Source of the DNA: an uncultured cyanobacterium
GTDB taxonomy: Bacteria; Cyanobacteriota; Cyanobacteriia; Cyanobacteriales; Cyanobacteriaceae
Assembly: GCA_963710605.1 (NCBI GenBank)
Contig: CAVQBA010000006.1
Location: 768,001 to 832,000, forward strand
Direction of reading: 5' to 3'
DNA length: 64,000 nucleotides
Shown: piece by piece, positions 1 through 14,163 of the stretch
Position numbering within the stretch: position 1 is the stretch's first letter
Layout: each line of letters begins with the position of its first letter
Position numbers and translations under genes: made by a program
The notes under the pieces: generated by a model
What the model was told of the DNA's origin: nothing
What the model saw: the letters and a program-made list of their open reading frames with translations, nothing else
The model's database searches: none

Positions 1-203
1 TGTTTGTGGTGGTAGCACAGCAGTTGATGAAGATTTTGAACACTGATAATTAATTGACAATTGACAATTATTTTTAATTCAACTACCGATTTAGTGATAA
101 TAGAGAGTTGAAGGTTGTGAAGTGTACAATCACTTTCAATTCTTCATTCTTCTCCACTATAATTATCAATCAGAATTGATCTTTTTTTAAATTCTCAAAA
201 ATA

Positions 204-941
204 ATGAAAAAGTTACTCCTATTACTTAGTTTAATTGTTTGCCTAACAGGTTGTGTTAACTACGATGTTGGGATTAAATTTCCCCAAGCAAACCACGGTA
301 CAATTACCCAAAAAGTTAGGCTTAGCGAACAATTAACTAACGTCAGCGAACAAGAAGGTAAAAACTGGCTTAGAAGTCTTGATAGAAAAGCGTCTAGGTT
401 ACAAGGTAAAACTAAATATATATCCGAACGTGAAATTTTAGTGACAATTCCTTTTGCTAATGGGCAAGATTTAGCTCGTAAATTTAATCAATTTTTCTTA
501 CCTTCTGTTGATCAACAAAAGATCAACAGTTTTACTGATGATAGCCAAATCGATTTACTTGATTTATCAGCTAATTTATCGATCGTGCAAAATAATGCTA
601 TTTTTGTAGAGCGTAATACTCTTAAACTAATTGCCGATTTAACATCATTAGGAGTAACAACTGATGAAGGAAATATTATTTTTTCCTCTGGAGATTTAAT
701 TGATTTACAAGTGCAATTAAACTTTCCTTGGGGTGCGAGAATCATTACTAATGAATTTGCGGTAGAGAATAAATTACCTAATAATGGCTACAATATTCGG
801 TTACAAGCAGGACAAATTAACGAAATCACTGCTATATTCTGGCTTCCTAATTATGTCGGTTGGGGTAGTTTAGCAATTATTCTCTTTATTATTATTGTCT
901 TCTTCTTGAAATACAAAAAATTACCGTTAGTTAATAATTAA
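204..941 (+). CDS. DUF3153-like lipoprotein with C-terminal membrane anchor
   Basis: Lipobox LTGC, then VNYDVGIKF; C-terminal TM helix; resembles cyanobacterial DUF3153 proteins. Confidence 0.7.
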   Translation: MKKLLLLLSLIVCLTGCVNYDVGIKFPQANHGTITQKVRLSEQLTNVSEQEGKNWLRSLDRKASRLQGKTKYISEREILVTIPFANGQDLARKFNQFFLPSVDQQKINSFTDDSQIDLLDLSANLSIVQNNAIFVERNTLKLIADLTSLGVTTDEGNIIFSSGDLIDLQVQLNFPWGARIITNEFAVENKLPNNGYNIRLQAGQINEITAIFWLPNYVGWGSLAIILFIIIVFFLKYKKLPLVNN

Positions 942-955
942 ACAGTAAAAATTTT

Positions 956-980
956 GTAGGGGTTGAATATATTCAACCCT
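956..980 (+). repeat. GTAG-type REP-like hairpin
   Basis: GTAGGGGTTGAATATATTCAACCCT; relative near 27948-27974. Confidence 0.7.
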
Positions 981-1089
981 TGCTTGGTTTTATTACGTGA
1001 CTCTAAACCCCTCTTAATCCCTAACCACTCTTGCATCTGTGCGAACAAGGGTAGAATTTGAAATATAAATACCCGTACCAAAAAAACAT

Positions 1090-1485
1090 TAATATTTTTC
1101 TTGATTACAGTCTTGAATAAACTTTTTAAACATATAATCGTTTTTGCTGATTATTTGTAGTTGTTTGTAAAGGTTGGTCATAAATAATACATCCTTCATT
1201 AACTTGCACACAATAACCGAAATTATCTCTTTGAGAAACTTTCTGTTTCTTTTCTAACTTAGAACGAATATTCTGTTTATTTATTTTTTCTTCTAATATT
1301 TCACCTAGTTTTTTCCATAATTGAGAAGATTCTTTTTTGATATGAGATTCACTACAATTATTAAAATCTTGAGCTATTTGCCAATTCTTTTTCCCCTCCC
1401 AAGTACCTTTTAAAATAGTTTCTTGTATCGGTGTAAGTTCAATTAAATCATCGATGTAGTCCAAAATCTCCTCAATATGATTCAT
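1090..1485 (-). pseudogene. Internally deleted paralogue of the wHTH-NB-ARC gene at 3180-4529 (119-aa ORF 1126-1485 keeps only the N-terminal HTH region)
   Basis: N-terminus nearly identical to 3180-4529; 1115-1138 equals 3194-3217 and is joined directly to sequence matching 4180 onward. Confidence 0.85.
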
Positions 1486-1509
1486 TTATAGCTCTGGGTT
1501 AAAAATTTA

Positions 1510-1570
1510 ATCTACCAAATTATACTAAATCAAAACACGATCCTACCAAAATTAAATACAATATCCTACT
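1510..1570. promoter_or_regulatory. Putative phased operator array in divergent promoter, copy 1
   Basis: TAC-containing motifs at 1513, 1523, 1544, 1557, 1567, with the same spacing as in copy 2. Confidence 0.45.
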
Positions 1571-1757
1571 CTGCTCAACGATTTAAGAACATAAGATGAT
1601 TTATAAAGTTAGGAAAATTAATAACTTATTAACTAAGCCCTTTTACTAGCTCGTTCTTTTTCTAAACCTAGAGGATATGCGGGAGATGCTGAATTAATCG
1701 ATATATGCAACCTTTCAAGGAAAGAATTACTAAAAATTCGTCATATTAACCAAATTA

Positions 1758-2930
1758 ATGTCTTTATTCAAGTTCTTTAAACGTAAACTACCTTTGGCTT
1801 GGTTACAAATCAGCCACGAAAGGAAACGTTTACTGGTTGCTGTTTTAGGGATTGCCTTTGCAGATTTCCTTATGTTTATGCAGTTAGGGTTTCAAGCAGG
1901 TTTATACGAAAGCAACACTCTCTTGCATCGCAAATTAAAAGCCGATCTCGTTCTCGTCAGCCCCCAAGCCCTCTACATTGCTTTTTTAAACGACCTTTCC
2001 CGTCGTCGTATTTATCAAGCCAAGAATTATGAAAATGTTGTATCTGTTGCCGCCTTGTATGTCGATTATGCAGTGTGGAAGCATCCTAAAACCAAGCGGG
2101 AAACCACTGTTTTGTTTTTAGGGTTTAACCCAAAAAAGACAGCGATCGATATTCCCGAAGTTGCTGACAATCTCGATCGAATTAAATTTCCTGATGCTGT
2201 TTTACTCGATCGAGTCTCTAAAGGTGACTACCAAACTGTGATTGACGCTCTTAAAGCTGGAGAAATTGTCTCTACAGAAGTAGGAATACGGCGGGTTAAT
2301 GTTGTGGGTTTCTATGATTTAGGAGCAAATTTTTCGACTAATGTCAATATTATTACCAGCGACTTGAATTTCTTTCGCCTCTTTCCTCATCGGGATTTAA
2401 GTCGCATTAGTATTGGCTTATTGACGCTCACTCCTGGAACCGATCCTAAAAGTATGGCGAGAGTTTTACAAGCTGACTTGCCTAATGACGTGCAAGTTCT
2501 AACCTTAGAAGAATTTGCCGAACTAGAAAAAAAATATTGGGCAAGAGTGACTCCCATCGGTTTTATTTTTGGTTTGGGGGTAGCAATTGGTTTTATGGTA
2601 GGAACGATGACGGTGTATCAAATTCTTTATTCTAACGTTGCCGATCATCTCCCAGAGTACGCAACCCTCAAAGCAATGGGTTACCACGATCGCTATTTAC
2701 TGGGTGTGGTGTTGCAACAAGCGTTAGTCTTAGCTATCTTGGGTTTTATCCCTGGAGCTATCGTTTCATGGGGTTTATATCACTTAGCAAGTAGTATAAC
2801 CCTCTTACCTATTGTCATGACGGGGGAACGGGCTTTATCGGTTTTAGTAGCGACAATAGCCATGTCAACCCTATCGGGGGGAATCGCCATCCAAAAGCTA
2901 CGGGAAGCAGATCCAGCTGATATTTATTAG
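1758..2930 (+). CDS. devC: DevC-family ABC exporter permease
   Basis: LAWLQ..RLLVAVLGIAFA..LMFMQLGF, YQILYSNV..HLPEYATLKAMGY, C-terminal KLREADPADIY. Confidence 0.9.
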   Translation: MSLFKFFKRKLPLAWLQISHERKRLLVAVLGIAFADFLMFMQLGFQAGLYESNTLLHRKLKADLVLVSPQALYIAFLNDLSRRRIYQAKNYENVVSVAALYVDYAVWKHPKTKRETTVLFLGFNPKKTAIDIPEVADNLDRIKFPDAVLLDRVSKGDYQTVIDALKAGEIVSTEVGIRRVNVVGFYDLGANFSTNVNIITSDLNFFRLFPHRDLSRISIGLLTLTPGTDPKSMARVLQADLPNDVQVLTLEEFAELEKKYWARVTPIGFIFGLGVAIGFMVGTMTVYQILYSNVADHLPEYATLKAMGYHDRYLLGVVLQQALVLAILGFIPGAIVSWGLYHLASSITLLPIVMTGERALSVLVATIAMSTLSGGIAIQKLREADPADIY

Positions 2931-2979
2931 TCAATCTTTCAGTGTATATATCAATTATCAGTGATATGAAGTACAGACC

Positions 2980-3013
2980 GATCCCCCTAAATCCCCCTTT
3001 CTAAGGGGGACTT
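2980..3013 (+). repeat. GC-rich REP-like repeat (CCCCCTAAATCCCCCTT-N-AAGGGGGACTT family)
   Basis: Related copies at about 5751-5785, 5872-5905, 7582-7610, 8138-8195, 9304-9337, 23195-23245, 44546-44612, 45781-46194 (split), 47988-48023, 51658-51690, 52825-52902, 53199-53230. Confidence 0.85.
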
Positions 3014-3179
3014 GCAAATATTAACTCTACTTATCTAGTAATTTTTATCTATTAAGTATCCCCAATTAATTAAAGGTCAAAAAGCTTAAGTTCGTAGCCG
3101 CCATCGCTTAAGCCCTTATCTTAATTGCTTTTTATACCCCTTTAGGGGTAACTATAAACTTTCTTTTATTTAGGTAGCA

Positions 3180-4529
3180 CTACTTACATTCTCGAATAAA
3201 CTTTTTAAACATATAATTTAGCTTAAAAGTCGTACTTTCTTCTGATTTAATTTTTTCAACTAAACAACGTCTGATTAAAGATTTTATCACGGCTAAAAAC
3301 TGATAGTTAGAAATTTCTAGATTCATTGGTTGCAGTGAAAGATTTATTAATTCATCTTCTCTATCGGCAAACCACTTAATAACTTGATTTTCTAACTCTG
3401 ATAAACGTTCTAAATGAGATTCTAAAAAGGGTTTTAAATCATCAAAAAATATTTCATTCTCTTCTACTAAAAAATCACTAACCTTACCTTGATAAAATTC
3501 GTTAATAGTATCGGCGATTGTATTTAGCCAAGCTGGATTACTTTGATAAAGTTCTATTAATTTATGCCATTTTTCTTCATCTTGTAAGTTTTTTTCTTTT
3601 AATAATTCTTGAGCATCTTCTCTCAATCCTTTTAGTTGTAATGTCTTTACTTGCTTATTTTGTCTTGCTAAAATTTCTATATCTTTCGGTATTTCTTGAC
3701 TGATTAAGATGAAACTACTTTGATGATTTAATGTGATAATTTGCTGAAAAAACTTACTATAATCTTGATATTCTTTTCGATATTGCCCTGCTAATTCGCC
3801 ACTTCTAAATATGTGATGAAAATCATCAAAAACTATTAAACAACGAAATTGTTGAAAATAACTAATTAGGTTAGATAATGAACTTGATCGATCTGGATTT
3901 AAAAAATTTTCAACTTCTTGTTTTACGTTAATCAGTTTAGGAATATCATCAAAACTTTTGTAAAATATATAGTCAAATTCGGTTTTTATTTCAGAAATTA
4001 ATTTGAGTATTAAAGCTGTTTTTCCTACCCCAGTTAAGCCACAAACTGTTATTAGTTTAGTTTCATTTTCTAGCCAATTTTTTAAACTAGCAATTTCTAC
4101 ATCACGTCCATAATCACAACTTAATTCTGGTGCTTGGGTTAAATCAATTATTGTTTCTTTTTCTTTTAATGAAGACGATCGTTTTTGCTGATTATTTGTA
4201 GTTTGAATAAATTGACTATTAATATTTATGTTATTTTGATTATTTTGTAAAACACAGTTACGAGAATGATTAAAACTAAGAAAATCTTTATTCTTTTCTA
4301 ACTTAGAACGGATATTATGTTTATTTATTTTTTCTTCTAATTTTTCACTTAGTTTTTCCCATAATTGAGAAGATTCTTTTTTGATATGAGATTCACTACA
4401 ATGATTAAAATCTTGAGCTATTTGCCAATTCTTTTTTCCTGCCCAAGTACCTTTTAAAATCACTTCTTGTACTGGTGTAAGTTCAATTAAATCATCTATG
4501 TAGTCTAAAATCTCCTCAATATCATTCAT
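3180..4529 (-). CDS. N-terminal HTH plus NB-ARC (STAND) ATPase, putative transcriptional regulator
   Basis: Walker A GLTGVGKT, Walker B LIVFDD, C-terminal winged-helix-like region; no WD40/TPR repeats. Confidence 0.8.
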   Translation of the reverse strand: MNDIEEILDYIDDLIELTPVQEVILKGTWAGKKNWQIAQDFNHCSESHIKKESSQLWEKLSEKLEEKINKHNIRSKLEKNKDFLSFNHSRNCVLQNNQNNININSQFIQTTNNQQKRSSSLKEKETIIDLTQAPELSCDYGRDVEIASLKNWLENETKLITVCGLTGVGKTALILKLISEIKTEFDYIFYKSFDDIPKLINVKQEVENFLNPDRSSSLSNLISYFQQFRCLIVFDDFHHIFRSGELAGQYRKEYQDYSKFFQQIITLNHQSSFILISQEIPKDIEILARQNKQVKTLQLKGLREDAQELLKEKNLQDEEKWHKLIELYQSNPAWLNTIADTINEFYQGKVSDFLVEENEIFFDDLKPFLESHLERLSELENQVIKWFADREDELINLSLQPMNLEISNYQFLAVIKSLIRRCLVEKIKSEESTTFKLNYMFKKFIRECK

Positions 4530-4552
4530 TTGTAATTCTTACTTGGAAATTT

Positions 4553-4625
4553 AATCTACTTTAATATACCAAATTCTACTAAATAAAAACTCAATCCTAC
4601 CAAAATTAAATACGATATCCTACCC
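4553..4625. promoter_or_regulatory. Putative phased operator array in divergent promoter, copy 2
   Basis: TAC motifs at 4557, 4567, 4577, 4598, 4611, 4621; the last five are offset exactly 3054 bp from copy 1. Confidence 0.45.
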
Positions 4626-4695
4626 TGACAAATAATTGAAAAACATAACATGATTGTTAGTTAGAAAAAATTAAATAATCAAACGTTCTTGAATT

Positions 4696-5637
4696 ATGCG
4701 ATCGCAGTCCAACTTAATTAAAGAATCAGGATACAGTTTGATGGATGAAGCACAAAACCTGCTCTTGTCCGATCGTATTACAGAAGGTATGGATTGTTTA
4801 TCGGTAGGGATGAAAAATCTTAAAAATCATCATACAGCTAATGAGTGGCAAGAATTTGCTCAAACAACATTTTTAGAGCATCCTGTAACTCAAATAATTC
4901 ATCAATGCCCTTTTACTTATCGTTCTTTTTCCAAACCTAGAGGATACGCAGGAGATGCGGAATTAATCGATCTGATTTATGGTTTTAACTTAGACAGTCT
5001 TGATTTATCAAATCGTGCTAATCAAATTTTTGAACATTGTCGGTATTCGCCAACTTCTACTAGTGTAAGGGCAAGACTAGATGTTTTAGCACAAACGATC
5101 GATCGAGTAGCAGAACAAACCAATCATCCAGTTAGAATGATGTCTATTGCTTGTGGGCATTTGCGAGAAGCTCAAAAATCAGTAGCAATTCAAGAAAATA
5201 ATATTAGTAAATTTATCGCTTTCGATCGAGATACACTTTCTCTTCAACTAATCGATTCGCAGTTAAACAATAACTGTATCGAGACAATTCAAGGCTCAGT
5301 GACAACCTTGATTCGAGAAAAACAAACTTTTGAAAACTTAGATTTAGTTTATGCGGCAGGTTTGTACGATTATCTTGACCAGCCTTTTGCGACAAGATTA
5401 ACCAAAATAATGTTTGAAATGTTACGCTCAGGAGGAAAATTATTACTTGCTAATTTCGTTCCTAATCATCCCGATATAGGTTATATGGAAACATTTATGC
5501 AATGGTATTTAATTTATCGTACTGAAAGTCAATTAGAAGACGTTGCTAAAGAGATACCTACTAATGAAATTGCCGAGAAACGAACTTTTTTTGAAGAAAA
5601 CGGCAATATTGTATTTTTGGAATTAACCAAAGTGTGA
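4696..5637 (+). CDS. Class I SAM-dependent methyltransferase, PhcB-like
   Basis: KPRGYAGD motif, motif I MSIACGH, YAAGLYDYL, GGKLLLANF. Confidence 0.75.
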   Translation: MRSQSNLIKESGYSLMDEAQNLLLSDRITEGMDCLSVGMKNLKNHHTANEWQEFAQTTFLEHPVTQIIHQCPFTYRSFSKPRGYAGDAELIDLIYGFNLDSLDLSNRANQIFEHCRYSPTSTSVRARLDVLAQTIDRVAEQTNHPVRMMSIACGHLREAQKSVAIQENNISKFIAFDRDTLSLQLIDSQLNNNCIETIQGSVTTLIREKQTFENLDLVYAAGLYDYLDQPFATRLTKIMFEMLRSGGKLLLANFVPNHPDIGYMETFMQWYLIYRTESQLEDVAKEIPTNEIAEKRTFFEENGNIVFLELTKV

Positions 5638-5659
5638 GGAATTTTAACGTAAAAATAGA

Positions 5660-5682
5660 GGGTGCAAACCTTGCACCCCTAC
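5660..5682 (-). repeat. GTAG-type REP hairpin (empty copy)
   Basis: GGGTGCAAACCTTGCACCCCTAC; identical at 56015-56037; interrupted copies at 7076-7200 and 55339 onward. Confidence 0.8.
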
Positions 5683-5950
5683 AGCAGAAAATAAAAAGAC
5701 CGATCGCTCGCCTTCAATCCCTGACCCCTCTGCCTATCGGCATCTCCCAGATCCCCCCTTGATCCCCCCTTACTAAAGGGGGGGTAGGAGACTGGATGAA
5801 GTTTAAAGATGCTTCGCTTTTATTTTTAGGACTTGCTGATAACAACTATTGCAAATTTTATTTGAATTGGGAAGTCCCCCTTGACAAGGGGGATTTAGGG
5901 GGATCGATACGTACTAAATAATACTAATAATTAAGATAAAAATTTTTGAC

Positions 5951-7024
5951 ATGACTCGATCGTATTCTCTCAACAGTTGGCTAGACAAAGAAACCAGAAA
6001 AAGGATTTATCAAAAATCTGACTGGAAAGCAATTGGTATTTTTCTCGGACAAATTTTTCTTTATTTGATTTGTTTAGTTGGTGCGATCGCTGATTACTCA
6101 ATTATTTTTAATTTGATTTTCAGTATTTATCTTGGTTTTACGATCGGTCAAATTTTTATAACTGGTCATGATGCTTGTCATCAGGCTTTGACAAAATCTT
6201 CTTTTCTCAATCAAATTATTGGTAGAGTTGCTTTTTTATTTTCTCTTCATTCTTATTCTCTGTGGACAGTTACACATAATAACTATCATCATAACTATAC
6301 CAATATTAAGGGATTAGATCCTGTCTGGTGTCCAATGACAAAGGAAGAATTTGAATCTCAAAATTTAGTTCGCCGTTACCTAGAAAAACTATATAGAAGT
6401 TCGATCGGCGGCGGCTTTTATTATCTTCTCGAAATGTGGTTACAGAAATTTATTGTGCCTATTAATACTCAAGTTCGCTCTGAATGGAAAAAATATCTGC
6501 CTGACAGTATTTTAGTTCTTAGTTTTGCTATTTTGCAAACTTTTGTAATTGTTTATTTAGGTAGTTTTCTTGCCCCAAACAAGTCACCTATAGAAGTTTT
6601 AGTTTTAGGTTGGCTGATTCCTTTTGTGTTATGGAATTGGTTTATGGGAATCGTTATATATTGTCATCATACACATCCTGATATTCCTTGGTTTCAAAAA
6701 CATGAAAAAATTCCCTTTAATCAAATTCAAACTCATGTTACCAGTCACGTTATTTTTCCCAAACTGGTTAGCAGATTGTTGAATAGTATAATGGAACACA
6801 CTGCTCATCATCTTCAACCAACAATTCCAATGTACAATCTAAAGTTGGCACAAGACAAACTAGAAGAAGTTCATCGTCAAAACATAGTTGTCTATAATTG
6901 GAGTTTGGCAGAATATTGGAAAATTACTAAAATTTGTAAACTTTACGATTTTGAACAAAGATGCTGGACTGATTTCAATGGTAATCCGACATCTAAACCT
7001 GTTTGCACCGACTTTGAAAGCTGA
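5951..7024 (+). CDS. Membrane fatty-acid desaturase
   Basis: Three His boxes HDACH, HNNYHH, EHTAHH; transmembrane segments. Confidence 0.9.
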   Translation: MTRSYSLNSWLDKETRKRIYQKSDWKAIGIFLGQIFLYLICLVGAIADYSIIFNLIFSIYLGFTIGQIFITGHDACHQALTKSSFLNQIIGRVAFLFSLHSYSLWTVTHNNYHHNYTNIKGLDPVWCPMTKEEFESQNLVRRYLEKLYRSSIGGGFYYLLEMWLQKFIVPINTQVRSEWKKYLPDSILVLSFAILQTFVIVYLGSFLAPNKSPIEVLVLGWLIPFVLWNWFMGIVIYCHHTHPDIPWFQKHEKIPFNQIQTHVTSHVIFPKLVSRLLNSIMEHTAHHLQPTIPMYNLKLAQDKLEEVHRQNIVVYNWSLAEYWKITKICKLYDFEQRCWTDFNGNPTSKPVCTDFES

Positions 7025-7087
7025 GTTAAGCTACAAAAGGAGAAAAAACAGCAGTAGTAATTTTTATATTTTTCTGTAGGGGTGCAA

Positions 7088-7188
7088 GCGGTGGAAGCCC
7101 GCGTCGGCGTAAGACGCAAACGGTCAGAACCCGCGACGACGGCAAGTCGCAAGGGAAGGCTGACCAAGACGGGAACGTCCACCAAGAC
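7088..7188 (+). mobile_element. Nested small structured elements (RCGGT...ACCAAGAC family) inside a REP
   Basis: Removing 7088-7188 restores GTAGGGGTGCAAGGTTTGCACCCT; inner copy at 7120-7170. Confidence 0.75.
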
Positions 7189-7275
7189 GGTTTGCACCCT
7201 CATTGATGACATTTATTACTTTTGATTAATGAAAAAGTAGGTAAGATTAATAATAAATAATACAATCAAATTGTT

Positions 7276-7551
7276 ATGGAAGGAATTCAATATATTGTCG
7301 ATGACAAAGGAGAAAAAACAGCAGTAGTAATCGACTTAAAACAATGGGGTAATATTTGGTCAGAATTTTCTACTGTGTTAGCCGATCGTTTTAGAGAAAA
7401 AGAGGAATGGTTATATCAAGATGGTGGAGAAGAAAAACTCGATCGTGTTGAAGACACGGCGCTGCGCGATCGAGCATTAGAATGGTCTGCTAATAACCCA
7501 CCTCAAGAGTCTGATTTAGAAGAGCTAGAAAGAAAAATTAGACAATCATGA
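7276..7551 (+). CDS. Small antitoxin-like protein with a 27-nt in-frame insertion
   Basis: IQYIVDDKGEKTAVVIDL N-terminus typical of small antitoxin-like proteins; its stop overlaps an ATG (ATGA) at 7548. Confidence 0.55.
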   Translation: MEGIQYIVDDKGEKTAVVIDLKQWGNIWSEFSTVLADRFREKEEWLYQDGGEEKLDRVEDTALRDRALEWSANNPPQESDLEELERKIRQS

Positions 7552-7649
7552 CAAAAACAATTGTCGATTTTTGTACTCTTTCCTCCTGTTAAAAGAGATT
7601 TAGGGGGATTGATCTTTGTTTTTGTAACAAGATTTTTTTCAGATTAACA

Positions 7650-8100
7650 TTAATTGATTTCTAACTGAAGTTTTTCGATCGTTTCTAAAGGTAACTCAGT
7701 AATAGTAACAATTAAATCTAAAGGCATTTTTTGCTCTAACATTTTCAAAGCCGTTTCTATTTTACCCTGCTCAATACCTTGCTCAATACCTTGTCGAACG
7801 CCCTTTTCGATACCTTGTTGAATAATATCCTGATAAATAACTGATTCTTTCATAGTTTCCTCCCTTAAAATATTAGTAATAACTTGTTTTTCTAAAACTA
7901 AACCTGCTAATATCTCTGTACAAGCAGAAATATTACTTTCGATCGATTTTTGGTCAATTTTCTCGATTTCTTGAGCTACTTGAGTTAATGTTGCTCTTTT
8001 ATCTTCAGTCTTACTTAAAACCGCAAATGGTAACAATGCCTTTGACTTAAAGAAAGTTTCTGTGGGTTGTTCCCATAATCGTATAATATCAAAAAGAAAA
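7650..8100 (-). pseudogene. 5'-truncated Rpn-family (recombination-promoting nuclease/putative transposase) gene
   Basis: FDIIRLWEQP...LLPFAVL in frame upstream of the TTG; MKESVIYQDI and GIEQG repeats; N-terminal nuclease part missing next to a REP at 8138. Confidence 0.75.
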
Positions 8101-8317
8101 TAGTTGGTACCAAATTCTAAAAATAACGCTACAAATAGATCCCCCCAACCCCCCTTACTTAAGGGGGGCTTTAAACCCTTGATTTTTTGGTAAAAATATA
8201 ATGTAATTAAATCGATCGATCGTTTTGTCTGTATGTAGTAATAGCTTCTAGCTATTTTGTGTCTTTGAGAATGAAACAGCCCTGAGGGGGTTAGGGCGAT
8301 CGACCAATAATCAAGAA

Positions 8318-8373
8318 CCTTTGCCCTTTGCCCTTTGCCCCTTGCCCTTTGCCCTTTGCCCCTTGCCCTTTGT
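8318..8373. repeat. Heptamer tandem repeat (CCTTTGC) x8, STRR type
   Basis: Read directly from sequence. Confidence 0.9.
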
Positions 8374-8409
8374 TATAGATATTGTAAAAAATGGATCGGT
8401 TAGGACATT

Positions 8410-9258
8410 ATGAAAGATATTCAGTCTAATTTAATTAATCATCTTCGACAAATTGTTAGATTAAGAGATCCTTTTTTTTCTGCTGAAGGACATTTTTTTG
8501 TTAAAGAATATATTAAACAAGAACTAGGACGTTTTGGTCAAGTACAAATACAAAATTTTCTTTTTAACGGCACTAGCTATCAAAATATCATCTTAGATTT
8601 ACCTACAACACCTAAGCTAAAAGATAAACCACCAATTTTGATCGCCGCTCATTATGATACAGTTTTTGGTAGTGTAGGGGCGGATGATAATGGCACTGGG
8701 GTAGCAGTTTTGTTAGAGTTAGCTGAGTATTTTAGCACTCACCAAGCAAACTATCCTTTGCGTTTTGTCGCTTTTGATTTGGAAGAATATGGATTACTGG
8801 GTAGTCGCGCTTATGTGGATGAACTAAAAAAGTATAAACAACCTTTGCGTTTGATGGTTAGTTTAGAAATGTTGGGTTATTGTAATCCTCGTCCTAATTC
8901 TCAAAGATATCCTTCTGTTTTAAAATCAATTTATCCTTCTACGGGTGATTTTATCGCTTTAGTCGGTAATTTGGTGACTATCCCCGAAATGATTCATTTT
9001 CATGGGCAAATACGTTTAGCTAAAACTAAGTGTCAGTGGTTACCCGCAGGTATAAGAGGTGCGATCGTACCTGATGCTCGTAGAAGTGATCACGCTCCCT
9101 TTTGGGAACAAGGTTATAAGGCTATTATGGTAACCGATACTGCTAATTTGAGAAATCCTCATTACCATAAACCGACAGATACGATCGATACTTTAGATTT
9201 AACTTTTTTAACGGGTGTTTGTCAAGGATTAATGTTGGCGATCGAAAATTTATCGTAA
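8410..9258 (+). CDS. M28 family metallopeptidase
   Basis: AHYDT, GADDNGTG, DLEEYGLLGS, SDHAPF, YHKPTD. Confidence 0.9.
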   Translation: MKDIQSNLINHLRQIVRLRDPFFSAEGHFFVKEYIKQELGRFGQVQIQNFLFNGTSYQNIILDLPTTPKLKDKPPILIAAHYDTVFGSVGADDNGTGVAVLLELAEYFSTHQANYPLRFVAFDLEEYGLLGSRAYVDELKKYKQPLRLMVSLEMLGYCNPRPNSQRYPSVLKSIYPSTGDFIALVGNLVTIPEMIHFHGQIRLAKTKCQWLPAGIRGAIVPDARRSDHAPFWEQGYKAIMVTDTANLRNPHYHKPTDTIDTLDLTFLTGVCQGLMLAIENLS

Positions 9259-9482
9259 GTAATATAGCTTTTCCCATACTTACGAGGTACAACAAAAAAT
9301 GGTAAGTCCCCCTTTCAAAGGGGGGTTTGGGGGATTGATTTGTATTTGTATTTTTTAAATTTGGTATAAGTAATAATCACTACCATTTATTGATTAAGTG
9401 TCACAACTAGCTAAAATACCTTAAACTGTGACAGTAAGTGTAATGGTTACACATCAATAAATATAGCCTGTTTTACTCATAA

Positions 9483-10442
9483 ATGTCGAATAACTATTGT
9501 GACAGTATCACTCAAAGAAAAAACTTATTAGATAGTTTGGGAAAACTCCCCGAAGCCATTGTAGAAAACCAAGAATGGCTTTATATGTTAGAAGAAGATA
9601 CTAGACACTCTTTATCTATTGAAGGATATTTTGCGACAGAAGAAGAATTAAAAGCCGTCTTACAGGGTAAGAAAACTCAACCTGAAATTCTTAATTATTA
9701 TCGTACTTCCCAATTTATCTATGATTTAGGTTTACAATATTATCGAGAAAAATCACTTCTTTTAGATTTAGTTCTAATTCGTACTATTCACAGTCAATTA
9801 TTAAGAGGAATTGAAAAATACAGTTATTATTGTGGTCAATTTAGAATCGGTAACATTACTATTCAGGGTGCAAAAGTAAAACCTCCTCAATTAGAGCTTG
9901 AAAACTACGTTAAAACTTTCTGCGAGTATAGTCAAAATTGTTTAAGCATTTACCCTATTTTAGAAGCCTTAGCTCGTATTCATACACTTTTTGAAAGTAT
10001 CCATCCTTTTCAAGATGGTAATGGTAGAGTAGGTAGAATATTACTCAATTATTTAGCCATTTCTCAGGGTTATCCTCCTATTGTGATTAAAGGGATTGAA
10101 CTATCCCAACGCCATAAATATTATCAAGCATTAGAATCAGCCGATAAAGGATTTCACCAAGGATTTTATGATGCTAATATTTCTAGTATTCAACAAGGTT
10201 TAAATCAGGGAGATTATAGTTTATTAGTAGAATTATTGTATTTAGGATTAAAACCTAGATTAGAAACGATGATAATTACGGCTTTACAACAAAAAGAAAA
10301 CCTTTTTCTCTTAAAAGATTTAACTGATTATTTTCAAGTTAAAGAAACTACTTTACGTCAATGGATTAAAAGAGATAAATTAATAGCAATCAAAAAAAAT
10401 AACAAGCTTTATAGTCATCCAAAACTTTACTTGAACTCATAA
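9483..10442 (+). CDS. Class II Fic protein with C-terminal HTH
   Basis: [12 protein letters not shown] catalytic motif, SLSIEG inhibitory motif, C-terminal [10 protein letters not shown] helix-turn-helix-like segment. Confidence 0.9.
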
Positions 10443-10585
10443 ATGAATCGATTAATCGTTATTTTATAATAGTTAGCTACGCTATTATTAAGTGGATTTA
10501 GCGATTGAAAATTTATAATCAATTAATTCCTTTAATAATTTGCCATCAATTAATTGATTCCTTAGAGACAAGGTATGCCTTGTCT

Positions 10586-12331
10586 CTACCATTGTATTTC
10601 TAAAAGGTTTTTTAACCGTAAACGATCGATTTTACGATCGGTTTTAATTTCCCATAAATGGACATTTTTAGTTGGTAAACTAGTTAACATCTCTTGTAAT
10701 TGTTGCCAACTATTAATTAATTGATAATCGACATTGTAGGTTTTAACTAAATTACAAAAATCGATCGATTGAGGAGTCGCAAAATAATCTTCATATAAAG
10801 ACTCGTATTCAGCAATTGGTAACATTTCAAAAATTCCCCCACCATTATTATTAACTAAAATAATAATTAAACTTCCTTGTAAATATGGTCGAATCAAAAA
10901 GCCATTAGTATCATGTAATAAAGCTAAATCTCCTGTTAATAAAATAGTTGGTTGTGGATTTTGATGGGCTATTCCTAAAGCAGTTGATAAAGTGCCATCA
11001 ATACCATTTGCACCACGACTAAAATAAATTTGAAATTGTCGATCGTTTTTTTGCCAAAAATATTCAGCGTATCTTACCGACATACTATTAGCAATTACTA
11101 CAGGTGTTTTAACAGGTAAATATTGAGATAACATCCAGACTATTTTACCCTCAAACATTTCTTGATGATTACTCAGCTTATGTTGTAAGCGATGATTGAT
11201 TTGCTGATCGATTTGTTTCCATTTGTGGGTATTGTTTATATTAGTTGAAGGAGCTATCTGAGGAAATTCTGCTTTAATACTAGTTAGATTAGTTCTTAAA
11301 TGAACTGAGTTAGTATGCAAAGCATCAACATTATCCTCATGATCAACAATAATATAAGTCTTGATTTTGTGAGTGTTTAACCAACTTCTCAAAATCTTGC
11401 TTGTAGGATATTTACCAATTAAAATCACCACTTCAGGTAATAATTCTTGAGCATATTTCGCTATGCGTAAAATGATGTCATAATTGACGATCAAGTTTTG
11501 TTGATATAAATCACTGTAGTTTCTCACAGGAGAAAGTGCTTCAGCTAAAATAGGAAAGTTTAATTGTTGAGATAACAAAGCGATCGTTTGACAGTATTGT
11601 TGATTATTTTGTGGCGAATCAACCCCCGCAATAATTATTCCTTTTTCCGATTTTGACCACTCAATTAAATACTGCTTAATATTTGTTGATTTTTCTAAGT
11701 TATTAACCTGAAAAATAGGTAAATTAGCTAACAATTGTTCTGTAATAAAACTTTGTTTTTCTTGACTAATATGCAATTGTTTGCAAGGAGATAAAGGTTC
11801 TTGAAAAGGAATATTAAGATGAACAACTCCAGCATGAGGAAAACAACTTTTTTCCCAAGCATGAATAATAGTTTGTCGTAGATAAAATAATTGATTTAGT
11901 TCAATAGATGGTAAAGATAATTCTGTTTGCCATTGAGGATAATTAGCATACAAATTAATTTGCTCAATTGCTTGTCCTGCATGGCAATTTCGTAATTCAA
12001 AAGGACGATCGGCGGTTAGAATAATTAATGGTACATGACTATATCTAGCTTCAATAATGGCAGGATAAAAATTAGCTCCTGCTGTTCCCGATGTGCAGAT
12101 TAAAATAGTTGGTTGATAAGTTCTTTTCGCTATTCCTAAAGCAAAAAAAGCCGCTGATCTTTCATCTAAAATAGGAATAGTCTTAATCTGTTTATGTTCA
12201 GCAAAAGCGATCGTTAGAGGAGTAGATCTAGAACCGGGGCTTATTACTGCATTTTTGACTCCTAAAGTAGCGAAAGTTTCAGCGATTAGTGAACTCCAAA
12301 GAGTATTTATATTATTAAAACTAAGGGGCAT
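10586..12331 (-). CDS. menD: SEPHCHC synthase
   Basis: SPGSRSTPL, DERSAAF, CTSGTA, RGANGIDG, GDLALLHD...NNNGGGIF. Confidence 0.96.
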   Translation of the reverse strand: MPLSFNNINTLWSSLIAETFATLGVKNAVISPGSRSTPLTIAFAEHKQIKTIPILDERSAAFFALGIAKRTYQPTILICTSGTAGANFYPAIIEARYSHVPLIILTADRPFELRNCHAGQAIEQINLYANYPQWQTELSLPSIELNQLFYLRQTIIHAWEKSCFPHAGVVHLNIPFQEPLSPCKQLHISQEKQSFITEQLLANLPIFQVNNLEKSTNIKQYLIEWSKSEKGIIIAGVDSPQNNQQYCQTIALLSQQLNFPILAEALSPVRNYSDLYQQNLIVNYDIILRIAKYAQELLPEVVILIGKYPTSKILRSWLNTHKIKTYIIVDHEDNVDALHTNSVHLRTNLTSIKAEFPQIAPSTNINNTHKWKQIDQQINHRLQHKLSNHQEMFEGKIVWMLSQYLPVKTPVVIANSMSVRYAEYFWQKNDRQFQIYFSRGANGIDGTLSTALGIAHQNPQPTILLTGDLALLHDTNGFLIRPYLQGSLIIILVNNNGGGIFEMLPIAEYESLYEDYFATPQSIDFCNLVKTYNVDYQLINSWQQLQEMLTSLPTKNVHLWEIKTDRKIDRLRLKNLLEIQW

Positions 12332-12654
12332 TAATGATGATTAAAATTAAAATTTATAAAAACTATGATAGAACAATAAAAAATAAAACATAACTAATTA
12401 AAAGTTGTCACAAAAAGAAATTAATTCTAATTTAATCTAGCTACGATAAAATGATAAGAATGATAGTGTATGAGTTGAGTGAATTTAGATGTGATGACTA
12501 AATTTTAAAAAATAACGAATCGCACACTATCCACTTTATTGTCAATGGTCTGTGAGCAATTGTCAATTTTATCGAATTATCGTCAGCATTTTAAGAGTGC
12601 GAGGCAAACTCGTACCTTATCTGACAGCAATTATCAATTATCAATTATTAATTA

Positions 12655-14163
12655 ATGTTAGAAGCTAAAGTCCACTCTCAACTGAGAACTTTTTTACGTA
12701 ACCAGCAAGATTCGGCGTGGAATCATCACTTAACCATGGCGAGAATGGTTGCACGTGGACTAAGATTAAAACGATCGACAATTATCCAAACAGGTGTCAG
12801 TCACGAAGAATATCTACCTAGCTATATCACTCCTGCTTTATTGTGCGATTCTCCAGTGATGATAGTCACAGATAAACAAAGACAAAAGAAACTAATTGAA
12901 AATGACCTTTATTTTTTTCAAAAGTCTTTAAATATAGGTTTGTCGATTGAAAATAAAAATGAAATAAATATAGTTAATAAACCTAATTTGCTAGTTGTTG
13001 ATTATCAGACTTGGTTAGATAAAACTTATAGTCATTCACTTAATTCATCTAGCTCTATAATAGTCACTAATGCCGAGAAACTACCTAATATTATTAGTGA
13101 CTATTTAACCCAAGAAATTATTAGTCAGCAATGGTATCAGCTAGTAATTGATTTTCCTCAACACCAAGATATATTAAGAGACAAGTTAGCTAAATTAACT
13201 CAACTAATCTACGCTCATCCTCGTAACCGTGATGATAGTTATTTATTAGATGAAGAAGAAATTATAGTTATTAATCAAATCTGTGAACTAGTTAAAACAG
13301 TTGGTGACAATAATTCTGCTGGGCAGAAATTTCTCGATTTCCAAAGCAAACTTTTATCTTATCCTAATTATGTCGGTTACTTTAAAATCGATCGTAATCA
13401 ACCTTCATTTAGCTTAAATGTATCTCCTTTAGAATTAAAATCATCAATTAATAAAATATGGCAAAACAATAATTTTGTCTTGATTGCAAATTATTTAGAA
13501 CCAGAAAAATATCCTGTAGATTACGGTGATAAATTAGGAATTGATTTAGAAGAATTTACTTGTTTAAAATTTTTTCCTTCTGCTCAAAAATATTCCTTAA
13601 AAATGTATTTTACCAAAGGGCTTCCTTTTCCTAATAATCCTAACTTTTTAGCTAAAGTAAACCAAGAAATATTAGCCTTAGTCGCAGCGATCAAAATTGA
13701 TCATCATCCGATCGTAATTATCATTGATGACTTACCATTACAAGGTCAAATCACTACCAATTTAGCCGCTAACTTTGGTACGAGAGTACAATTAAAAAGT
13801 CAGAAAATCAAAAATAATACAATTTTAGTTTGTGACTTAAAATTCTGGTTAACTCACCAAACGACAATCAAATCACCCCAACTATTAATTATACCGACTT
13901 TACCAATTCCTTCATTAGAAAATCCCTTAGTTTCGGCTCAAGTGACTTATTACAAACAAAGAAAGAAAGATTGGTTTCGTCTTTTTTTATTACCTCAAAC
14001 AATTAAAATCTTACAAAGAGCGACTATTTCTGTAAGAGAAAATAACGGCGTTTTAGCATTACTAGATAATCGAGTTAATCATCGTAGTTACGGAATAAAA
14101 ATTTTACAATCTTTAGAACCTTATGAAAAAATAAATTATCTTGATCTAGATTGGTTAAATTAA
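12655..14163 (+). CDS. DinG-like helicase C-terminal domain protein (Walker A not evident)
   Basis: MLEAKVHSQLR..HHLTMARMVAR N-terminus, TLPIPSLENP, LLDNRV..RSYG. Confidence 0.75.
   Translation: MLEAKVHSQLRTFLRNQQDSAWNHHLTMARMVARGLRLKRSTIIQTGVSHEEYLPSYITPALLCDSPVMIVTDKQRQKKLIENDLYFFQKSLNIGLSIENKNEINIVNKPNLLVVDYQTWLDKTYSHSLNSSSSIIVTNAEKLPNIISDYLTQEIISQQWYQLVIDFPQHQDILRDKLAKLTQLIYAHPRNRDDSYLLDEEEIIVINQICELVKTVGDNNSAGQKFLDFQSKLLSYPNYVGYFKIDRNQPSFSLNVSPLELKSSINKIWQNNNFVLIANYLEPEKYPVDYGDKLGIDLEEFTCLKFFPSAQKYSLKMYFTKGLPFPNNPNFLAKVNQEILALVAAIKIDHHPIVIIIDDLPLQGQITTNLAANFGTRVQLKSQKIKNNTILVCDLKFWLTHQTTIKSPQLLIIPTLPIPSLENPLVSAQVTYYKQRKKDWFRLFLLPQTIKILQRATISVRENNGVLALLDNRVNHRSYGIKILQSLEPYEKINYLDLDWLN

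Follow-up and report, generated by a model that had tools for sequence, protein, structure and literature searches.

The phcBSRQ quorum-sensing operon of the Ralstonia solanacearum complex includes the gene for PhcB, which, in the cited parts of two papers, makes methyl 3-hydroxymyristate or methyl 3-hydroxypalmitate (PMC7694676; PMC9102662). Here we describe a 64,000-nt stretch of DNA, hereafter the window, from an uncultured cyanobacterium (assembly GCA_963710605.1, contig CAVQBA010000006.1, positions 768,001-832,000 of the forward strand; host genome 3.93 Mb, GC 0.334), in which a gene for a PhcB-family methyltransferase lies between a divergent gene for a helix-turn-helix (HTH)/NB-ARC regulator and a gene for a membrane fatty-acid desaturase, with a solitary devC gene close by. 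Two further described systems bear on this locus: DevBCA, which with TolC/HgdD is the glycolipid exporter of heterocyst-forming cyanobacteria (NCBIfam TIGR01185, TIGR02971 and TIGR02982), and the MalT/LAL regulators, which carry their HTH at the C-terminus.

From the sequence we propose, tentatively and at somewhat under an even chance, that these genes include a horizontally acquired cassette, regulated by a STAND (signal transduction ATPase with numerous domains) protein, that makes a methylated unsaturated fatty-acyl product. The core of the island that carries it would be one cassette of a cyanobacterial family of HTH/NB-ARC regulators that stand head-to-head with variable cargo. The STAND protein, switched by nucleotide and a cue, would turn on the methyltransferase promoter through ATCCTAC repeats; the desaturase would insert a double bond into a fatty-acyl chain, and the methyltransferase would methylate a fatty-acyl-derived acid, probably at its carboxyl group by analogy with PhcB, giving a hydrophobic, diffusible, methylated unsaturated lipid that might serve as a signal. 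The assignment to lipids follows from family kinship and from recurrent lipid-related neighbours, not from chemistry. The parts of the cassette are as follows.

3180-4529, - strand: regulator, 449 aa, HTH plus NB-ARC-type STAND nucleoside triphosphatase (NTPase)
4530-4695: intergenic region between regulator and methyltransferase genes, 166 nt
4594-4623, + strand: direct repeat ATCCTAC-N16-ATCCTAC, within the intact intergenic region
4696-5637, + strand: methyltransferase, 313 aa, short form of the PhcB family, no Pfam family matched
5638-5950: spacer between methyltransferase and desaturase genes, 313 nt, with dispersed repeats and a hairpin
5951-7024, + strand: membrane fatty-acid desaturase, PF00487

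All open reading frames (ORFs) of the initial annotation were recovered at the same positions by ORF calling, and its gene order, an HTH-NB-ARC gene divergent from a methyltransferase gene that is followed by a desaturase gene, is confirmed.

The methyltransferase belongs to a large family. Among the scored candidates there are 1349 homologues at E<=0.001, mostly of about 308-313 aa and spread over many phyla, and many of them carry the Joint Genome Institute (JGI) name ‘extracellular factor (EF) 3-hydroxypalmitic acid methyl ester biosynthesis protein’, which we take to be the KEGG wording for phcB. Aligning 36 members gave 37 invariant columns, and the window protein keeps every one of them. 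Its structural model (predicted local distance difference test score, pLDDT, 93.4) is that of a class I S-adenosylmethionine (SAM) methyltransferase with a Rossmann-type sheet and a helical cap, and every Foldseek match is a methyltransferase or a putative one; among solved structures the closest is a Bordetella protein of uncharacterised function (3ocj, template-modelling score 0.63-0.65), followed by small-molecule O-methyltransferases, and a sequence search of the PDB gave BchU at an uninformative E=0.31. A tblastn search of plasmids found, on plasmid pPHS1_P of Paraburkholderia graminis, an operon of a 468-aa methyltransferase, a histidine kinase and two successive response regulators, which is the phcBSRQ layout. 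The window protein matches this methyltransferase by BLASTP at 29% identity (E=6e-29, residues 38-309), and hhalign aligns the family profile with it at 99.8% (E=2.5e-27, 251 columns, residues 46-311); the two proteins have in common the motifs PF..R.F.KP.GYAGD, D.VY.AGL.DYL, GG.LL..N and ME..WYLIYR. The window protein shares with this proxy for PhcB a homologous SAM methyltransferase domain with its helical cap, but it is 313 rather than 468 aa long, falls on a separate long branch and has no adjacent PhcS, PhcR or PhcQ genes (no histidine kinase or response regulator was found among the 12 ORFs of positions 1-14163); it is partnered instead with a desaturase and an HTH/NB-ARC regulator.

In cyanobacteria such methyltransferases are scarce: only three of 401 genomes have one at E<=1e-10, namely the window's own and two small genomes in which the match is at 30% identity. 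In these two, a cyclic-nucleotide (cNMP)-binding domain is fused to the distant methyltransferase relative in proteins of 477-481 aa (L008, 1417-2850; L009, 802-2247). The five closest relatives, at 59-69% tblastn identity, lie in metagenome-assembled genomes (MAGs) labelled Microcystis, Chamaesiphon and Crocinitomicaceae and in two further MAGs (L010-L013 and L041). The copy on the contig labelled Crocinitomicaceae, a Bacteroidota MAG (L012), is at zero tree distance from that of the Microcystis MAG (L010), which suggests a binning error in one of the two records.

The desaturase is of the three-histidine-box di-iron membrane type, like the PF00487 acyl-lipid or ‘delta-12-like’ desaturases, and scores 108 bits against a PF00487 cut-off of 29.7. 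Its HDxxH, HNxxHH and HxxHH boxes are invariant or nearly so, and H73/D74/H77, H109/N110/H113/H114, H240 and H286/H287 are invariant in 14 sequences. It differs from those desaturases in a conserved C-terminal extension (CKLYD...CW.DF.G.PTS) and in NCBIfam equivalog scores that are far under the cut-offs (66 vs 500); the name that JGI derives from KEGG orthology for its homologues is omega-6/delta-12 desaturase, and the best PDB sequence match (E=0.019) is not useful. The subfamily is rare, with 67 homologues, of which the closest (53-60% identity) are in Rivularia, Shackletoniella and Cyanobium MAGs; among the 401 cyanobacterial genomes only the window's own has it at E<=1e-30, and tblastn at E<=1e-6 found no other match within that genome. 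Judged against homologues, the regulator, methyltransferase and desaturase ORFs are all full length, with their invariant or catalytic residues in place, and the methyltransferase and desaturase genes look functional.

The pairing of methyltransferase and desaturase genes recurs elsewhere. A scan of genome contigs gave at least 455 methyltransferase loci at species level, of which the best 80 were kept for neighbourhood counts; these 80 rows are not independent, because kin share neighbours. A desaturase homologous to that of the window (33-39% identity) adjoins the methyltransferase in eight of the 80, always on the same strand, at gaps of 51-579 nt and seven times downstream, in Acidobacteriota, a Fimbriimonas MAG (Armatimonadota) and an alphaproteobacterial MAG. 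The desaturase-linked rows fall in at least four places on the methyltransferase tree, and the window's own six-row clade (support 99) is sister, with a Shimodaira-Hasegawa-like likelihood-ratio support of 89, to a five-row desaturase-linked acidobacterial clade. With a desaturase subfamily as rare as this one, the recurrence of the pair is not due to chance. A DevC-like FtsX/MacB permease follows the methyltransferase in six of the 80 loci, each time with an ATP-binding cassette (ABC) ATPase and an HlyD-type adaptor and in three of the six with a patatin-like phospholipase next in line; these permeases are 26-30% identical to the window DevC. One such locus, from Acidobacteriota-type MAGs (L019, 7995-13276; also L017 and L034), is a tight operon of methyltransferase, FtsX/MacB permease, ABC ATPase, HlyD and patatin-like phospholipase genes, and is a self-contained ‘release, methylate, export’ gene set.

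Other neighbours were counted by crude ORF calling and clustering of three genes on either side. Sensor kinases or response regulators occur near the methyltransferase in 45 of the 80 loci, mostly within one myxobacterial lineage that has a 1650-aa Ser/Thr-kinase-AAA_16-GAF-histidine-kinase protein; FadL-type outer-membrane channels occur in seven and cNMP-binding proteins in nine. The initial annotation had been prepared to give up its proposal if homologues of the methyltransferase were free of linkage to desaturase, NB-ARC or dev genes. This check on linkage, fixed beforehand, found the desaturase in 8/80 loci, the DevC-like exporter in 6/80 and the NB-ARC regulator in 0/80; the objection fails for the first two kinds of gene, since desaturases and tripartite exporters do recur beside the homologues, while linkage to the regulator was not borne out.

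The regulator has weak Pfam matches to LuxR/GerE and to NB-ARC/NACHT/AAA_16, all under gathering scores, and its best PDB sequence match (E=0.1) is not useful. In its structural model (pLDDT 68) a four-helix N-terminal HTH (residues 1-78; helices within 4-64) is joined by a disordered Q/N-rich linker (80-124) to a P-loop NTPase, a helical domain and a C-terminal winged helix, and there is no sensor repeat arm. The best Foldseek matches are the NB-ARC modules of plant NLRs (ZAR1, NRC), Apaf-1 and CED-4, with MalT also among them, and the family alignment has a G..G.GKT loop and a conserved DD; by its model the protein is an NB-ARC-type STAND NTPase with helical and winged-helix domains. The HTH is a candidate LuxR-type domain (GerE E=0.009 in the window regulator; 4e-7 and 5e-6 in two homologues, where alone it exceeds the gathering score). 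The protein resembles the MalT/LAL-type and NLR-like STAND regulators in joining an NB-ARC/STAND NTPase to a putative LuxR-like HTH, but its HTH is N-terminal and, at only 449 aa, it is without a TPR, WD or LRR sensor arm.

The regulator family, for which the precomputed Pfam family is PF26355, gave matches in 76 of the 121 genomes of the order; a single genome can have as many as 14. We examined 29 of its loci besides that of the window; L147 gave no ORF and L159 no upstream DNA, leaving 27 with an upstream ORF, which is divergent in 24 at gaps of 59-388 nt. The cargo that faces the regulator has a Pfam family in six of these 24 (GUN4-like twice, TM2, RDD, LOG/SLOG and GTPase) and none in the other 18, and in two genomes of the window's own family it is a VWA-PP2C-kinase operon. 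With divergence this common and cargo this diverse, the head-to-head layout is conserved across the regulator family, for which the methyltransferase is one cargo among many. Across the loci L135-L163 and L099-L101 the expanded family nearly always faces divergent, variable and mostly unannotated cargo; in L101 the regulator is split into two ORFs.

The candidate operator ATCCTAC-N16-ATCCTAC, one copy of which lies between the regulator and methyltransferase genes, occurs at two sites in the window (none expected from shuffles) and at no other site in the 3.93-Mb genome. The 166-nt intergenic region that contains it likewise has only two copies in the genome, the second of which is described below. 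A further candidate site, a TATACCAAAT..TACTAA box beside the regulator start, is also present upstream of two homologues. A promoter-like match at 5904-5931 lies in the spacer before the desaturase gene, and such matches are no commoner than in shuffles; the same holds for the matches of the promoter and terminator scans in general.

Several observations weigh against the cassette as we propose it. The candidate operator motif is unique as a result of the duplication itself, which is not a sign of binding, and with the regulator in none of the 80 methyltransferase loci its pairing with the methyltransferase has been seen only once. The methyltransferase and desaturase genes are 313 nt of repeats apart; the window takes a different position in the methyltransferase tree of the nine pairs than in their desaturase tree; none of the five closest methyltransferase relatives has an adjacent desaturase (one methyltransferase homologue, P0020, and one desaturase homologue, P0128, each have a longest contig of 2678 nt and may be neighbours in a closer relative); and three metagenome loci of desaturase homologues (35-39% identity, from a single-sequence query) are without the methyltransferase. 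As for PhcB, the comparison is with one Paraburkholderia proxy operon and not with the characterised Ralstonia protein, and the window protein does not have the roughly 180-aa N-terminal part of that proxy. In a tree of 85 rows, rooted on this one proxy and two cNMP-fused long forms, the long forms stand on a branch 0.83+0.83 away from all 82 short forms. The tree also included mis-called ORFs from high-GC loci (L031, and a nine-row group with very long branches), and only well-supported clades near the window were used. The BLASTP and hhalign matches together with the long branch back kinship at the level of the family and not membership of the phcBSRQ clade: the similarity to PhcB, which the initial annotation had proposed from motifs, stands as homology (29% identity, hhalign 99.8%) outside the long-form phcBSRQ branch.

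In a rival reading, which we regard as unlikely though deserving of attention, the substrate of the methyltransferase is a non-lipid small molecule, the desaturase is an independent passenger of a mosaic island, and the two enzymes share no pathway in this genome. The enzymes that resemble the methyltransferase in structure are O-methyltransferases acting on phenolics, alkaloids and bacteriochlorophyll, rearrangement of the island is plain to see, and the spacer between the two genes is filled with repeats. The closest methyltransferase relatives likewise stand in other company: the loci of the Microcystis MAG (L010), L011 and L041 have unrelated neighbours, which include an mCpol-domain protein and a sulfotransferase in L011 and glycosyltransferases in L041, and the contigs of L012 (2.8 kb) and L013 (1.7 kb) are too short to judge. 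However, both genes are very rare in cyanobacteria and yet are adjacent here, and the same pair is adjacent and co-oriented in the eight loci of Acidobacteriota, Armatimonadota and Alphaproteobacteria.

The nature of the regulator family raises another reading, in which an invader or a stress is sensed by the HTH/NB-ARC protein, which then switches on the methyltransferase, together with the desaturase, as an effector that would remodel or poison membranes or emit a volatile, with no cell-to-cell signal. The family is multi-copy, with its highly variable cargo (the VWA-PP2C-kinase triad, GUN4-like, TM2, RDD, LOG/SLOG and GTPase proteins, and the 18 of 24 without a Pfam family), a pattern typical of the diversifying NTPase systems of multicellular prokaryotes as these are presented in the cited part of one paper (PMC7159879), and the island adjoins a Fic/SoFic-like gene. 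We nevertheless consider this reading rather improbable: PADLOC gave no match for the regulator, the methyltransferase, the desaturase or devC, the context of the PhcB family elsewhere is dominated by sensor kinases, which fits signalling, and the HTH would make the regulator a transcription factor rather than a direct effector scaffold.

The proposed cassette for a methylated unsaturated lipid must also be seen beside its decayed duplicate and the devC gene, which lie to its left.

1105-1702: decayed duplicate (copy A) of the regulator / intergenic region / methyltransferase 5' module, with two internal deletions
1126-1485, - strand: 119-aa ORF that keeps only the HTH part of the regulator and ends in a frameshifted tail
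1540-1569, + strand: direct repeat ATCCTAC-N16-ATCCTAC, candidate operator, in intergenic copy A
1758-2930, + strand: devC (TIGR01185)

The initial annotation had seen here a second copy of the regulator and its promoter, and hence the same upstream architecture for two cargo units. When positions 1000-1800 were compared with 2900-5700 by blastn, copy A resolved into four collinear pieces: 1105-1138 corresponds to 3184-3217, the 3' end of the regulator gene (94%); 1137-1162 to 4178-4203; 1247-1624 to 4291-4678 (86%), which is the HTH-coding part and the intergenic region; and the 66 nt of 1637-1702 (+ strand) to 4907-4971 (89%), inside the methyltransferase gene at about codons 71-92 and ending 55 nt before the start of devC. 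Copy A therefore derives from the regulator-methyltransferase module by two deletions: the whole NTPase was lost in one and the methyltransferase start in the other. The 119-aa ORF (GerE E=1.5e-4, under the cut-off), whose product is 70% identical to residues 1-117 of the 449-aa regulator and whose tail is out of frame relative to that gene, is a deletion remnant and not a second regulator gene. The HTH parts of the two copies differ at 18 of 240 nt, with a dN/dS of 0.31 over 80 codons, which gives no verdict on current use of the remnant. The supposed second copy thus comes down to a duplicated 5' part and intergenic region, and the architecture common to both cargo units is owed to duplication followed by deletions, not to independent design.

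The devC gene is a DevC equivalog by score (TIGR01185, 480 bits against a cut-off of 290), as in DevBCA, but it differs from that system in being an orphan. Neither devB nor devA has a match anywhere in the 64-kb window, while in other genomes eight of the nine best-matching devC genes have both as neighbours. A second devC of the same genome, on contig C4, adjoins devB, and the window devC is only 43% identical to it; its best match in the order, where devC is a multi-copy family, is at 58%. Its composition (GC 0.418, GC at third codon positions, GC3, 0.376) departs from the genome GC of 0.334 and from the GC3 of 0.15-0.25 in its neighbours. The genome's only DevA above the equivalog cut-off (C2:75639-76295) is on a different contig from devB-devC (C4:722758-725033). 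With an orphan gene of deviant composition on one side, the joint between devC and the methyltransferase fragment is an apparent recombination scar between DNAs of different origin; devC would have come from elsewhere, and in composition it does not match the other genes of the island. As for the DevC permease of the initial annotation, the protein family stands. Copy A is a decayed duplicate cassette whose promoter now points into this orphan gene, about 134 nt downstream, and the deletion may by accident have placed devC under the same promoter as the methyltransferase. Export of the product through the window devC is possible, outside any demonstrable system.

The initial annotation had gone further, to a full system in which one STAND regulon would make an unsaturated fatty-acid methyl-ester signal that devC exports. 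Both promoters would answer to one regulator, and DevC would borrow DevA and DevB, or other partners, in trans. Both intergenic copies keep the candidate operator repeat, which has no further occurrence in the genome, a transcript started at the copy-A promoter would reach devC, a methyltransferase is followed by a DevC-like exporter in six of the 80 loci elsewhere, and the genome's one DevA over the cut-off lies apart from devBC in any case, so that its use in trans is conceivable. Against this, copy A is a deletion remnant with a dead methyltransferase fragment, the window devC stands apart from the canonical copy in identity, surroundings and composition, the methyltransferase-linked exporters are only distantly similar to DevC and each bring an ATPase and an HlyD of their own, and no signal receptor was identified. 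We therefore give the full system little credence. A related circuit, in which the cytoplasmic HTH/NB-ARC protein would itself be the receptor of the methylated unsaturated product and auto-induce the promoter of the methyltransferase and desaturase, with the captured devC adding export under the same operator, is in our view a long shot. If true, such a one-component lipid-signal circuit would offer a STAND-based counterpart to the two-component sensing of PhcB signals by PhcS and PhcR; cyanobacteria would then have their first PhcB-type signalling module, and it would be the first case of a STAND protein as receptor for a signal of this kind.

The genes discussed here lie on a strain-specific island, the remaining features of which, with its two neighbours, are the following.

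204-941: DUF3153 gene, left neighbour of the island
about 942-8406: strain-specific island, between the DUF3153 and M28 peptidase genes
2945-3187: dispersed short repeats in the devC-regulator spacer, with 18-29 near-full-length genomic copies and matches in related genomes too
7276-7551: small ORF
7650-8036, - strand: Rpn-family nuclease / putative transposase, C-terminal part only, on the right edge of the island
8410-9258: M28 peptidase gene, right neighbour of the island

In G412, a genome of the same genus that is 67% complete, a single contig (L098) carries the DUF3153 and M28 genes about 780 bp apart, as against 7.5 kb in the window; the exact junctions are not placeable, because the flanks are only 74-77% identical to those of G412. 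In our reading the segment of about 942-8406 is an island that was acquired horizontally and has been rearranged. Its spacers are packed with dispersed repeats that have 10-29 near-full-length copies each in the genome. The Rpn-family fragment matches TIGR01784 at E=8.8e-11, under the cut-off, and covers only positions 155-273 of the 273 of the model. That the island now holds a decaying remnant without current function, as its deletion derivatives, Rpn fragment, orphan devC and many repeat insertions might suggest, is very improbable given full-length regulator, methyltransferase and desaturase ORFs that keep their invariant or catalytic residues.

A mobile element bounded by the inverted repeat I1 (2947-3019 / 5866-5938) was considered and rejected, as its arms are dispersed repeats with 15-29 near-full-length genomic copies; for the same reason the inverted repeats on either side of the regulator-methyltransferase pair do not point to a mobile unit. 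A 28-nt inverted repeat (5670-5697 / 7061-7088, 89% complementary) flanks the desaturase gene, and its arms overlap dispersed repeat families. To the right of that gene, 7060-7200 is a GC-rich repeat element with 46 blastn matches in the genome, 10 of them near full length; copies are 93-98% identical and spread over several contigs, and the element folds as a long branched hairpin (-60.8 kcal/mol, z -4.35) that belongs to no Rfam family. An Rfam search of positions 1-9500 at E<=0.1 gave no match. The element is bracketed by an exact 26-nt direct repeat (7036-7061 / 7306-7331), the second copy of which is within ORF 7276-7551, as if the 5' part of this ORF had been duplicated on insertion of the element or of the desaturase segment. 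At 8318-8379 there is a tandem heptamer array of the CCTTTGC/CCCTTGC type, and near-identical arrays are dispersed in related genomes, notably G408. Beyond the M28 peptidase gene, the first 14 kb of the window hold genes for a Fic protein, MenD and a DinG-like helicase. The Fic-domain protein (9483-10442) has a C-terminal HTH-like region and matches the PADLOC SoFic model at E=1.9e-28; only a subset of the family's genomes has DNA homologous to its gene (79-82% identity).

In the cited parts of the two papers on the Ralstonia system, signalling by PhcB-type fatty-acid methyl esters is described for the Ralstonia group only (PMC7694676; PMC9102662). A family with at least 455 loci, beside kinases, desaturases, phospholipases, FadL channels and exporters, suggests that lipid methyl esters are a far wider class of bacterial products or signals. 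In the literature searched, no paper links PhcB with cyanobacteria or with desaturases, and K19620 likewise gave no match. As the proposed cassette comprises three genes, the question of its product is directly testable by heterologous expression. The window adds a cyanobacterial case of a PhcB-family methyltransferase and a different control logic, in which a minimal HTH/NB-ARC regulator would replace the two-component system, and it exposes a large cyanobacterial family of such regulators with variable cargo.

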